From: Candidatus Krumholzibacteriia bacterium | GTDB lineage: Bacteria > Krumholzibacteriota > Krumholzibacteriia > Krumholzibacteriales > Krumholzibacteriaceae | Assembly: GCA_028696635.1 (NCBI GenBank) | Contig: JAQVGR010000001.1 | Coordinates: 1-25,786, forward strand | Reading direction: 5' to 3' | Length of the DNA stretch: 25,786 nt | Part shown: piece by piece, positions 17,757 to 24,982 of the stretch | Layout of the letters: each line of letters begins with the position of its first letter | How positions within the stretch are numbered: the first letter of the stretch is position 1 | The notes under the pieces: generated by a model | What the model was told of the DNA's origin: nothing | The model's input: the letters and a program-made list of their open reading frames with translations, nothing else | Database searches by the model: none | Made by a program: the position numbers and the translations under genes

Positions 17757-18092
17757 ATGCAGAAACAGCCTCAACCCCAGCAGCAGATACAGGTGCAGCT
17801 CGACGAGTCGGCCGCGGAGGGTATCTACTCGAACTTCGTGCTCACGGGGAACACGCACGCGGAGTTCATCCTCGACTTCGCCCGCATGCTCCCGGGCCTG
17901 CCGAAGGCGAAGGTCCTCTCGCGGATCATCATGACGCCGCAATCGGCCAAATCGCTGCAGATCGTGCTGACAAGAACGATCGAGCAGTACGAGAAGAACT
18001 TCGGCGAGATCAAGATGAAGGGGGGCAGGGAGGCCTCCCAGATCGGGTTCCAGGCCAAGGCCGGCGCTCCCGACTCCGGCGACGACTCCTGA
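17757..18092 (+). CDS. DUF3467 domain protein
   Basis: IQVQLDESAAEGIYSNF, EFILDFA, SRIIMTPQSAKSL, YEKNFGEI, IGF tail. Confidence 0.88.
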   Translation: MQKQPQPQQQIQVQLDESAAEGIYSNFVLTGNTHAEFILDFARMLPGLPKAKVLSRIIMTPQSAKSLQIVLTRTIEQYEKNFGEIKMKGGREASQIGFQAKAGAPDSGDDS

Positions 18093-21617: not shown

Positions 21618-23345
21618 TCAACGGGCCGTATTCTTCGCGGCCACTTCCTCCTCCCGGAGCTGCTCGATCTTGGCGAGCATCTGCTTGCCGTTCTCGTTCT
21701 CCGGATTCAGCGCGAGCGACTTCTCGTAGAACTTCTGCGCCTTGTCGAGCTTGCCGGCGACGAGCAATCCCTCTCCGAGGCTGTCGTAGACGTTCCACGA
21801 TTCGGGGTACATCTCGACGTTGTTCTTGAAAACGTAGATCGCCTCTTCGACCTTCCCGTTGTGCAGCAGGACGTACCCGAGGGTGTTGAACTCGCTCTCC
21901 TTGAAATAGTATTCCGAGGAGCCCGACTGCTCCATCTTCTGCAGCTTCTGCAGCACGGCCCCCGCCTTTTCCTGCCCTTCCTTCTTCAGGGCCATCGCGA
22001 ACTCGACCGCCGCGGAGCTTCCCTTTCCCTCTTCCATGATCTTCTGCCAGGTCATCTCGACCTTGGCCTTCGGATCAGTCGGGAACTCGCCCGCCTCCGT
22101 CTTTTCCTTCATCATCATCTTCTTCTCGAGCTGCAGCTTCTTGAGCTCTTCATCGGTCAGTTGCTTCTCGTGCTGCAGCTTTTTCATTTCCTCTTCGGTC
22201 AGCTTCTGTTCAGCCTCACGCTTGATCTTCACCTTCCGGACATCCTCGTCGTCCTTCTCCTGGGCCTGGATCTGCCAGATCCCCGAGACGGACAGCGGAA
22301 ACACGAGACTGAGGACGAGAATGCCTGCGACGATCGCAGACCTGCGCCCTCCGGTGCTCCTGTTCACCCCCGGGTTGAGGATGCACAGCAGCCGGTCCTT
22401 GAGATTGGATCCCTGCGAAATCATGACTGCCTCCCATGCCGGTCTCGCCGCGCTGCCGAGATCGGCGGCGATGTCCATCAGCAGCGAAGCGTAGGCCGAA
22501 GGCCGTACGCCGCAGCCGAGGACGGCGTTGTCGCAATCGCGCTCGCGCTCGATCCGCAGGCGCCTGACGGCGAGCCAGGCCAGCGGATTGAACCAGTGGA
22601 GCACGGTCGCGGAATGAGCGAGCAGCTCGATCCATCCGTCGCGGCGCTTGACGTGCGCCAGCTCGTGGGACAGGACGAGCCGCAGACGTTCCTCGGACCA
22701 GGCGGTCGACGCGGAAGGAAGGATCACGGCGGGGTCGGCGCATCCCGTCGTGATCCCGGTCATCACACGCTCCGACAGGAGGACGCGCACGGGGCGCTCC
22801 AGGCCTATCTCCGCCGCCGTCGCTCTCGCCACGGCGCGGAGCCTGTCGCCGGCGGGGACCGCTCCCCGCGCGACCCTCCCGGCGATCGCGGTCGTGAAGA
22901 GGAACCACGCCATCATGACGACAGCGCCGGCGATCCAGACGAGAAGCACGACCTCGGACCAGTGGAGTCCGATCGCTCCGGACCGTCCGGCCGCGTCGAT
23001 CGAGGGTGTCCCGGCCGGAGACGGAGGTCCGACGAGGATCTCCTTTCCCGAAACCGCGCTGAGATCGCCGTCCGGCCCGGCGGATACGGGAGCGTCCGCC
23101 ATCGCCGGCAGCAGGCCGAGGTTCCACATCGGGGTCAACGGCGCCATCGCGGGGATCAGGAGCAACCCCGCGACCGCCGCGACCCAGATCATCTTCCGCG
23201 TGTATGCCGAAGAACCGCGCATCATCAGCGTCGTCGCTCCCGCGGCGGCGCAGAGCATCGCTCCCTTGAGGGAGACCCCGGCGATCAGCTGGAGGATCTC
23301 GTACCGGGGCATGCCGGCCATGAGCGTGGAAAAGAAGCCGTCCAT
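21618..23345 (-). CDS. BlaR1/MecR1-like M56 membrane metalloprotease-sensor with C-terminal TPR domain
   Basis: N-terminal TM helices, PAVILP, HELAHVKRRD (HExxH), ERERDCD, LKDRL, final TM, then charged linker and TPR-like NTLGYVLL...NVYDSLGE...YEKSLALNP; 1 nt after the blaI-like stop. Confidence 0.92.
   Translation of the reverse strand: MDGFFSTLMAGMPRYEILQLIAGVSLKGAMLCAAAGATTLMMRGSSAYTRKMIWVAAVAGLLLIPAMAPLTPMWNLGLLPAMADAPVSAGPDGDLSAVSGKEILVGPPSPAGTPSIDAAGRSGAIGLHWSEVVLLVWIAGAVVMMAWFLFTTAIAGRVARGAVPAGDRLRAVARATAAEIGLERPVRVLLSERVMTGITTGCADPAVILPSASTAWSEERLRLVLSHELAHVKRRDGWIELLAHSATVLHWFNPLAWLAVRRLRIERERDCDNAVLGCGVRPSAYASLLMDIAADLGSAARPAWEAVMISQGSNLKDRLLCILNPGVNRSTGGRRSAIVAGILVLSLVFPLSVSGIWQIQAQEKDDEDVRKVKIKREAEQKLTEEEMKKLQHEKQLTDEELKKLQLEKKMMMKEKTEAGEFPTDPKAKVEMTWQKIMEEGKGSSAAVEFAMALKKEGQEKAGAVLQKLQKMEQSGSSEYYFKESEFNTLGYVLLHNGKVEEAIYVFKNNVEMYPESWNVYDSLGEGLLVAGKLDKAQKFYEKSLALNPENENGKQMLAKIEQLREEEVAAKNTAR
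22122..22205 (-). repeat. 42-bp tandem duplication (2 copies, 33/42 identical) encoding a 14-aa charged repeat
   Basis: KLTEEEMKKLQHEK / QLTDEELKKLQLEK. Confidence 0.85.
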
Positions 23346-23346
23346 C

Positions 23347-23739
23347 TCACCGGCCCTCCTTCCGGGACCGGTCGATCAGATCCTCGATCGCCCGGACCTC
23401 TTCGCCGGAGAGCCTGCCCTCCGACTCCTTCAGTATCGAGATGACGGCGTTCGCCTCGGCGCCCTTGAAAAAAGTGTCGAGCACGTTCGCCAGCGCCGTC
23501 GTCCGGGCCTTCTGCAGCGGGATCGTCGGATAGTAGATGTACCGCCCCTTCTCCGTCTCGTGCCGCAGGAACCCCTTGTCCTCGAGCACGCCGAGCATCG
23601 TCCGCACCGTGGCGTTGACCGGCCTGTCGGGGAGGGCTTCCATCACCTCCACCGCGCTCACCCGTCCGAGACGGTAGACGATCTCCATGATCTGCCTCTC
23701 CCGCCGCGTGAGGTTACCGAGCTGTGGTTTCTTGCCCAT
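23347..23739 (-). CDS. BlaI/MecI/CopY family transcriptional repressor
   Basis: LTRRERQIMEIVY, TVRTMLGVLEDKGFL, GRYIYYP, LDTFFKG, IEDLID; start set to ATG 23739 (SD AAGGGAG). Confidence 0.93.
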   Translation of the reverse strand: MGKKPQLGNLTRRERQIMEIVYRLGRVSAVEVMEALPDRPVNATVRTMLGVLEDKGFLRHETEKGRYIYYPTIPLQKARTTALANVLDTFFKGAEANAVISILKESEGRLSGEEVRAIEDLIDRSRKEGR

Positions 23740-23812
23740 GAGTCCGATTCGCTCCCTTCGCGATGGTGCGCGGTCCCGGCCGATCGTTCCGGTCCCGCGT
23801 GACCGATCAGGC

Positions 23813-23887
23813 ATGCCAAATCTTTCACATGAGAAATATTTAACATCTTTGCCCGCCTGTCAAGGGGAAATGTTAAATTTTTCTCAT
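23813..23887. promoter_or_regulatory. Operator/promoter region with three copies of ATG-N2-AAATNTTT-N2-CAT and a minus-strand TTGACA
   Basis: 23813-23830 ATGCCAAATCTTTCACAT; 23829-23846 ATGAGAAATATTTAACAT; 23870-23887 ATGTTAAATTTTTCTCAT; TTGACA at 23863-23858 (minus). Confidence 0.8.
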
Positions 23888-23920: not shown

Positions 23921-24982
23921 CTACCGCTTCGCCTCGATGACCCCGCCGCCGAGCACGAGGCCGTCTCGGTAGACGACCACCGACTGGCCGGGGGTGATCG
24001 CCCTCTGGGGCTCGTCGAAGCGGACCTCGAGGCGGCTCCCCTTCAGCGAGAACTCGCAGGGGGCTGGGGCGTGAGCATACCGTATCTTCGCTTCGGCGCG
24101 CCCTCCCTTCTCACCCGGAGGGAAGTTGACCGCGGTGGCGAGCAGATCGCTCCCGCCGAGGTATGCTTCCGGGCCAACGATGAGGCGGTCGCGCGCGGGA
24201 TCTATGGCGATCACATAGAGCGGCTCGGGGGCGCTGATCCCCAGTCGTCGCCGCTGGCCGATCGTGTAGTTGAAGATCCCATCGTGCTCGCCGACGATCT
24301 CTCCGTCGACCGAGACGATCTGTCCCGGCCTCGAAGGGATCCCGCGCGCCGCGAAGAAGGCGGCCGCCCCACCCTCGGGCCAGAAACAGACATCCTGGCT
24401 CTCCCGCTTCTCCGAGACCGAGAGACCGGCCTCGTCGGCAAGGGCCCGGACCTCGTCCTTGGCCAGCTCGCCGACGGGGAAGAGAACCCGCTCGAGACGC
24501 TCGCGGGGGATCGAGTAGAGGAAATAGGTCTGGTCCTTCCCGAGGTCTTTCGGGCGCGAGAGGTAGAGAACTCCGTCCCGCCGCTCGAGCCGCGCGTAAT
24601 GCCCGGTGGCGATCATGTCGAACCGCGCGCCGGCGAGCTTGTCGGCGAGGAGGCGGAACTTGATCCGCTCGTTGCAGAGCACGCAGGGGTTGGGGGTGCG
24701 CCCGCAAAGGTATTCCTCGACGAACGGGGCGATCACCTCGCGCTCCATGTCATCACTCATCGAGATGACATGGTGCTCGATTCCCAGCGCTGCGCATACC
24801 CTCCGCGCGTCGACGATGTCCCCGGGGCTGCAGCAGCGCCGCGCCCCGGCCTCGCCCCCGGTCCCGATGCACATCGTCACCCCGGAGACGTCGTACCCGC
24901 CGCGCTTCAGAAGGAGCGCGGCGACCGACGAGTCGACCCCGCCGCTCATCGCTGCCAGTATGCGTGTGACGGTGCGGATCAT
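23921..24982 (-). CDS. mnmA: tRNA-specific 2-thiouridylase MnmA
   Basis: AMSGGVDSSVAA PP-loop, TPNPCVLCN, ATGHYA, KDQTYFL, ESQDVCF, HDGIFNYTIGQR, AITPGQSVV. Confidence 0.97.
   Translation of the reverse strand: MIRTVTRILAAMSGGVDSSVAALLLKRGGYDVSGVTMCIGTGGEAGARRCCSPGDIVDARRVCAALGIEHHVISMSDDMEREVIAPFVEEYLCGRTPNPCVLCNERIKFRLLADKLAGARFDMIATGHYARLERRDGVLYLSRPKDLGKDQTYFLYSIPRERLERVLFPVGELAKDEVRALADEAGLSVSEKRESQDVCFWPEGGAAAFFAARGIPSRPGQIVSVDGEIVGEHDGIFNYTIGQRRRLGISAPEPLYVIAIDPARDRLIVGPEAYLGGSDLLATAVNFPPGEKGGRAEAKIRYAHAPAPCEFSLKGSRLEVRFDEPQRAITPGQSVVVYRDGLVLGGGVIEAKR

Follow-up and report, generated by a model that had tools for sequence, protein, structure and literature searches.

The promoter region of a blaI-like gene in Candidatus Krumholzibacteriia contig JAQVGR010000001.1 carries three copies of an 18-bp dyad which, judged from sequence comparison, are very probably (about 0.85 in our estimate) the operators of the BlaI-family repressor encoded beside them, and the blaI-M56 operon would in this way repress itself. 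The analysis covered a stretch of 25,786 nt, referred to here as the window. An earlier note on this DNA had predicted that the dyads are the repressor's own operator, and this prediction is now supported by conservation in orthologs and by the co-variation of half-site and recognition helix. The sites, their position on the promoter, the conservation, the recognition-helix co-variation and a dimer model were all computed and are described in turn.

Organization of the region

The features of the region are listed in order of position.

21618..23345, minus strand: gene for a membrane metalloprotease of the M56 family (BlaR1-type), whose C-terminus has a TPR region (PF05569, E 3.3e-34)
23347..23739, minus strand: blaI-like repressor gene, 130 aa, no cysteine (PF03965 profile match)
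23740..23812, minus strand: GC-rich leader of 73 nt, from O2 to the start codon, ending in the RBS GGGAG
23813..23830: site 1, predicted operator O2, ATGCCAAATCTTTCACAT (dyad scan; ortholog alignment)
23829..23846: site 2, predicted promoter-proximal operator O1, ATGAGAAATATTTAACAT on the plus strand and ATGTTAAATATTTCTCAT on the gene strand (dyad scan)
23835..23840, minus strand: predicted -10 hexamer AATATT, within O1 (consensus scan only)
23858..23863, minus strand: -35 hexamer TTGACA (promoter scan; conserved 11 nt upstream of O1 in orthologs)
23870..23887: site 3, predicted auxiliary upstream operator O3, ATGTTAAATTTTTCTCAT (dyad scan)
23921..24982, minus strand: mnmA (PF03054), ending upstream of the spacer that bears the sites

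The pattern ATG-N2-AAA-N2-TTT-N2-CAT has exactly three matches in the window, at 23813-23830, 23829-23846 and 23870-23887, and a search with ATGNNAAANNTTTNNCAT allowing up to 2 mismatches returned only the same three places (0.05 expected by chance; three matches in 0 of 100 shuffles). The three palindromes reported earlier upstream of the blaI-like gene were thus recovered. Extended to the whole genome (2.2 Mb) with up to 1 mismatch, the search with ATGNNAAANNTTTNNCAT gave just two additional places, and a control with the pattern reversed gave none. All three sites are confined to the sole AT-rich patch of the region (GC 0.42 versus ~0.67 around it), which is held by the 181-bp spacer between the mnmA stop and the start of the BlaI-family gene. 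Two nucleotides (AT) are shared by sites 1 and 2, which puts their centres 16 bp apart, with CATG across the junction, as had been described. Sites 2 and 3, at 41 bp centre to centre, constitute a 19-nt inverted repeat that is 95% complementary with 23 nt between the arms, and the minus-strand TTGACA (23863-23858) around which this repeat was said to be arranged does lie inside that interval.

A promoter scan found one promoter-like site, TTGACA-17-AATATT on the minus strand, with 10/12 matches (shuffles average 0.1). The AATATT (23840-23835) falls inside site 2, confirming that this site covers the expected -10. Relative to this predicted promoter, whose transcription start is placed near 23828, O1 spans about -18 to -1 and covers the -10, O2 spans about -2 to +16, and O3 lies 6 nt upstream of the -35 at about -59 to -42, its centre 41 bp from that of O1.

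The repressor matches PF03965 (BlaI/MecI/CopY; Penicillinase_R winged-helix) over profile positions 1-114 of 115 (E 3.2e-24, 85.9 bits, cut-off 22.6). Its start is at 23739 (MGKKPQ..., RBS GGGAG), as in the orthologs. The in-frame ATG further upstream at 23814, inside site 1, is not the start. The leader sequence between O2 and the start codon (23740-23812) is conserved in the nearest relatives (GCGGGACCGGAACGG...CCGG.ACCGCGC), and a consensus fold of seven leaders has 16 pairs, 0 of them with a compensatory change. The same leader holds a 19-nt direct repeat (23771-89 and 23790-808, 74% identical).

The nearest solved structure to the repressor is that of MecI (1sd6, E 7e-4). A homodimer model reached an ipSAE of 0.58 (0.00 for the best of three controls) with a pLDDT of 82, and placed the interface at residues 75-126, in the C-terminal part; the runs shared at least 85% of their contacts. 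Of proteins with solved structures, 20 of 30 pairs and 1 of 23 single chains reached the mark that this model passed. The model suggests that the repressor homodimerises via its C-terminal helices, but MecI and BlaI dimers have already been solved and the pass may for this reason reflect likeness alone.

The M56 gene begins 1 nt after the blaI-like gene, the two presumably share one operon, and about 100 of 110 related loci retain the pair. TPR matches were found at residues 487-560 of the M56 protein and a HELAH (HExxH) motif is visible in its translation. In BlaI and MecI the scissile bond, which we take to be N101-F102, lies in the dimerisation domain. In the alignment MecI ...vlNFvek... 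stands opposite ...viSIlke... of the repressor examined here, and because the N-F pair aligns with S-I, proteolytic release is not assured. Downstream of the M56 gene by 178 nt, and on the same strand, is dprA (PF02481; 20222-21439, minus strand). In one relative (G009; L009 and L069, contig C15), only the last ~55 residues of the M56 protein, the TPR tail, are matched after the blaI ortholog, near the blaI end, and the M56 gene may be largely deleted there though all three operators are intact.

The closest loci in the databases are from MAGs labelled Candidatus Krumholzibacteriota or Krumholzibacteria. Of the sequencing runs, only a landfill metagenome matches the stretch well (share 0.97), and this run is probably its source; RNA runs contained no more than 0.08 of its words.

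Conservation of the dyads in orthologs

A search of 41 related genomes gave 20 loci, of which 19 are orthologous (59-80% identity) and one is a paralog (55%). Motif conservation upstream of orthologs had been set beforehand as a test of the operator proposal, and it held, over a range of 55-82% protein identity, in 19 of the 20 loci, where TTGACA is followed after 11 nt by the tandem dyad pair, in a fixed position relative to the hexamer; the one remaining locus is truncated at the end of its contig. The nearest-relative loci from a named collection have the same pattern of TTGACA and tandem dyads. On the gene strand the consensus is RTGTTAAAT[A/T]TT[A/T]CACAT overlapping ATGT[T/G]AA....TTTAACAT. 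In the alignment of the tandem pair, positions 2-9, 11-12 and 16-20 are nearly invariant, and the spacer between -35 and operator and the leader vary. O1 (alignment positions 1-18) is the best-conserved dyad, and part of the conservation at its centre could stem from the -10 element itself. O2 (alignment positions 17-34) is kept as the second dyad in most orthologs, its outer half better conserved than its inner half. Site 3 was found only in the window and in the sister (nearest) genus (L063-L066, L069), where it stands 15 nt from the -35 (6 nt in the window) and 50 bp from the O1 centre (41 bp in the window). One relative (G014, 90% complete) has the sites, yet no BlaI ortholog was found in it with the query used.

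Half-sites and the recognition helix

Relatives at 43-54% identity, spread over no fewer than five other phyla (Acidobacteriota, Gemmatimonadota, Planctomycetota, Gammaproteobacteria and Fibrobacterota), also have two 18-bp dyads directly after TTGACA, in the frame RTG-N12-CAY. Most of these dyads read RTGCTAA-N4-TTAGCAY, with the half-site TGCTAA, and the two are spaced by 16, 18 or 19 bp; in smaller groups the arms are TGTCAA, TGCGTA/TGTGTA or GCGAAA-type. At the equivalent promoter position, more distant paralogs within this family of genomes bear palindromes of other kinds: L030 and L035 (paralogs at 40% identity, in genomes G021 and G008) and L026 have TAGGAAAATATTCCTA-type repeats or the perfect 18-mer ATGCTGATGCATCAGCAT at the promoter. 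Genome G008 encodes at least six BlaI-like genes.

We aligned 81 proteins, sorted them by the half-site found upstream and compared the N-terminal part of residues P40-E53. In the alignment with MecI these residues lie opposite SPKTIRTLITRLYKKG (the SPKTIRT part), and they correspond to helix H3, which in Bacillus licheniformis BlaI (P41-K53) contacts DNA (PMC1935004). The H3 N-terminus and the half-site pair as follows.

xNAT[V/I]RT: half-site TGT[T/G]AA
SYSA[V/I]RA: half-site TGCTAA
TYTAVRG: half-site TGTCAA
SYSTVRT: half-site TGCGTA/TGTGTA

In the protein of the window H3 reads VNATVRT, and the half-sites are TGTTAA, TGTGAA or TGAGAA. Since the half-site and the N-terminus of the recognition helix change together, the sites are tied to the adjacent BlaI-like protein. 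Such co-variation is what would be expected for direct readout by that protein and not for the site of an unrelated global regulator, though it is largely a difference of clade against clade and hence represents few independent events. On the same comparison, the TGTTAA group appears to be a sister specificity to the TGCTAA group and not an identical one.

Which unit is bound

The unit of the putative operators is TGTTAA-N4-TTAACA within the ATG...CAT 18-mer, which places the half-site centres ~11 bp apart, one helical turn. The junction of sites 1 and 2 also offers a CATG-centred palindrome (TTAACA|TGTTAA) that is closer to the classical inner ACA..TGT. This candidate was rejected because isolated sites are always A/T-centred 18-mers standing alone, and because the spacing between the dyads varies among relatives (16, 18 or 19 bp). 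CATG as a methylation or restriction motif was likewise rejected, as relatives have GTG...CAC ends. No TACANNTGTA core is present near the gene even at 1 mismatch, the sole match in the window (up to 1 mismatch) being at 17788, 6 kb away; the earlier suggestion that the recognition sequence departs from TACA-N2-TGTA is therefore upheld.

The core of the 18-mer, TGT[T/G]A-N6-T[A/C]ACA, shares its 16-bp frame with TGTGA-N6-TCACA, which we take to be the CRP box, and TGTGA itself occurs in gene-strand site 1 (ATGTGAAAG...) and in many ortholog O2 sites, raising the question of whether a different regulator, such as a CRP/FNR-family protein, binds the dyads. We regard this as very improbable. The sites accompany blaI-like genes across phyla at a constant promoter position, their half-site shifts with the BlaI recognition helix, they number 3-5 per genome, far below the numbers expected of a global regulator, and their placement over the -10 and the start site is that of a repressor.

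The relationship between sites 2 and 3 could also be accounted for at the RNA level, if their inverted repeat formed a hairpin that terminates or attenuates read-through from mnmA, instead of or besides serving as protein sites. The predicted fold of minus-strand RNA from 23925 to 23810 does contain an extended hairpin (-42.7 kcal/mol, z -4.1). In both the window and the sister genus, which likewise has mnmA upstream, site 3 nearly equals site 2 read as its reverse complement, even at the AG/CT positions that depart from the palindrome. However, no U-tract follows the hairpin and a terminator scan found none, O1 and O2 are kept in most orthologs without site 3, and in a relative (L146) ATGAGAAAAATTTAACAT, identical to site 3, occurs by itself before an ankyrin gene. 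Two copies of any palindrome will pair in any case. We give this account very little chance.

That the AT-rich repeats are mere promoter elements (-10 and UP-like tracts), palindromic but of no regulatory role, can be dismissed as scarcely credible, for although the O1 centre coincides with the -10 and AT-rich tracts lie upstream of the -35 in many orthologs, the same symmetric 18-mer occurs downstream of the start as O2 and upstream of the -35 as O3, GC-rich variants (GTGCTAA...TTAGCAC or ATGCTGATGCATCAGCAT) take the same place in relatives, and isolated copies are found upstream of other genes.

Proposed mode of regulation

If the dyads are operators of the BlaI-family repressor, as we favour, then the binding of the repressor, the repression it exerts, its release by proteolysis and the kind of signal involved are all inferred. 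One dimer would occupy each dyad, with one recognition helix per half-site (ATGT[T/G/A]... in each arm). Repressor bound at O1, over the -10, and at O2, over the transcription start, would keep RNA polymerase off the promoter, and O3, just upstream of the -35, would add a third dimer in the lineage of the window and in its sister genus. By analogy with BlaI/BlaR1, MecI/MecR1 and PetR/PetP, the M56-TPR protease, in which the sensor region contains TPRs instead of a penicillin-binding domain, would respond to a signal, and the repressor would then be lost and the operon derepressed.

Candidate regulon

The earlier note had also proposed that the motif could be used to find the regulon of the repressor, by means of a genome-wide PWM scan. 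This is borne out in part: sites recur in relatives, but the genome of the window itself (75% complete, 407 contigs, 66% GC, 2.2 Mb) contributes one extra site, and a doubtful one. PWM and core scans of that genome agree on a sole other strong dyad, ATGTTAATAATTTAACAT, at C63:2460-2477 (L004:1501-1518). This dyad coincides exactly with the start codon of an ORF of 141 aa, which we did not count as a target because it matches only the second half of Fib_succ_major (positions 81-187). A truncated gene is one possible explanation of this ORF, a junction in the assembly another. Weaker matches are in low-GC contigs or inside coding sequence. The contigs from which they come (C102, C232 and C16) have a far higher AT content than the genome at large (66% GC), which may point to mobile DNA or to contamination during binning. 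Of the DUF5916 paralogs in this genome, one (C133) has no site and the other (C183) runs off the contig end, and no ankyrin homolog was found with the query used in this 75% complete genome.

Across 43 genomes of the family, a search with ATGTTAAANNTTTAACAT at up to 2 mismatches gave 0-5 matches per genome, versus 0-1 for the reversed control. The genes that recur downstream of sites in relatives are these.

DUF5916/CBM9 genes: sites in five sister-genus genomes and two other genera (L047, L143, L144, L145, L147; L045; L053, L054)
Ankyrin-repeat genes: L038, L049, L146
Secreted TPR protein: L036, L041, with a full copy of the TTGACA-plus-tandem-operator arrangement
MBL-fold protein: L044, L151
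Esterase-TPR gene: L042

On one 2.3-Mb contig of a relative, all five sites (5/5) are close upstream of genes (two blaI, two ankyrin and one DUF5916). In the sister genus (L047:1519-1577 and L143-L147) a conserved GC-rich inverted repeat (GGGGCCGG...CCGGCCCC) is present in the 5' leader, after the single dyad that precedes DUF5916/CBM9.

A broader reading would be that a signal other than an antibiotic acts through the BlaI/M56-TPR pair of Krumholzibacteriota on a small, conserved regulon of the envelope (DUF5916/CBM9 outer-membrane-type proteins, together with ankyrin-repeat, secreted TPR and MBL-fold ones) and, jointly, that the pairing of H3 with half-site is a recognition code (NAT..T with TGTTAA, YSA..A with TGCTAA, YTA..G with TGTCAA and YST..T with TGCGTA). 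We advance this combined reading tentatively and think it rather unlikely to be correct as a whole. If it were true, operators and regulons would be predictable from protein sequence alone in a very large uncharacterised branch of the BlaI family.

Comparison with known systems

BlaI-family repressors autoregulate through pairs of dyads, and the motifs differ between members (PMC1935004, PMC7253601, PMC8457756, bioRxiv 10.1101/2020.07.31.226407). The system in the window resembles BlaI/BlaR1 and MecI/MecR1 of Staphylococcus aureus and B. licheniformis in having a PF03965 winged-helix repressor beside an M56 gene. It is also like them in its dyad operators, usually two, over the repressor's own promoter, in a dimer formed through the C-terminal domain and in the reading of the half-site by H3 (PMC1935004). 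However, the BlaI/MecI operators are imperfect dyads of 24-30 bp with a central TACANNTGTA (PMC1935004), whereas those described here are 18-mers with a TGTTAA-N4-TTAACA core in which the conserved bases are outside and the centre is A/T, and the half-site separation is ~11 bp as against roughly 6 bp in TACANNTGTA. BlaR1 and MecR1 have an extracellular penicillin-binding sensor, while the M56 protein of the window has TPR repeats (M56 and TPR only, in the profile search), and no beta-lactamase or PBP gene is near the blaI-M56 pair of the window. Scores against the NCBIfam models were far below the CopY, BlaI, MecI and BlaR1 cut-offs (for example, 85 bits against a cut-off of 400 for blaR1_generic, over residues 130-344 only).

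CopY/CopR proteins bind the cop box, RNYKACANNYGTMRNY, a 16-bp operator often present in two copies upstream of the operon (PMC7253601). CopY has a C-terminal cysteine motif (CxC, metal-binding), in contrast to the 130-aa protein of the window, which has no cysteine and scored 51.4 bits against TIGR02698 (CopY; cut-off 121.95). A pattern scan found no KACANNYGTM cop-box core.

Close counterparts are the TGCTAA-N4-TTAGCA systems of the relatives described above, which share the 18-bp RTG-N12-CAY frame, the tandem pair right after TTGACA and the gene pair. In the window, T replaces C at position 4 of the half-site (or the arm is TGTGAA/TGAGAA), H3 is xNATVRT and not SYSAVRA, the dyads overlap by 2 nt (16 bp apart) where most others are 18-19 bp apart, and a third, upstream dyad is present. 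A literature search of partial coverage returned no paper giving the TGTTAA or TGCTAA motif, full-text matches to BlaI with TTAGCA being unrelated primers; the Pseudomonas aeruginosa BlaIR preprint and the Clostridioides difficile CenIR paper describe no operator, and the Mycobacterium tuberculosis BlaI paper gives its motif in a figure only.

Of the experimentally characterised systems, BlaI_0696 and BlaI_1845 of Clostridium thermocellum were shown by DAP-seq and EMSA to recognize GTCTAT-N5-ATAGAC, with two dyads per target (PMC8457756). They resemble the system of the window in their non-TACA, 6-nt inverted repeats, in a similar half-site separation and in small regulons that include their own operon; they differ in the half-site itself and in N5 as opposed to N4. 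Two dyads accommodate four protomers at the C. thermocellum targets, whereas some presumed targets in relatives of the window have a single dyad. PetR/PetP of Synechocystis sp. PCC 6803 has the motif GACN5GTC and responds to copper, and PetR can also activate (bioRxiv 10.1101/2020.07.31.226407). It too combines a BlaI-family regulator with an M56 protease lacking a beta-lactam sensor, in a Gram-negative organism, with its own motif and a small regulon that is not concerned with resistance. Compared with PetR, the sites in the window are at the positions of a repressor.

Given the published precedents of BlaI/MecI, CopY, C. thermocellum BlaI and PetR, a BlaI-family system that combines tandem dyads and a motif of its own with a sensor for something other than antibiotics is of an already known kind. 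The window itself holds an ordinary autoregulatory promoter, and its chief value is for annotation and for the design of binding experiments, with the helix/half-site pairing and the candidate Krumholzibacteriota regulon as useful extras. In environmental bacteria, BlaI/M56 pairs lacking a penicillin sensor abound, and signals or targets are established for hardly any of them. A defined operator gives a handle on the targets, which in relatives point to DUF5916/CBM9, ankyrin-repeat, secreted TPR or MBL-fold genes, and the shift of the half-site with the recognition helix provides a simple, testable rule of specificity.
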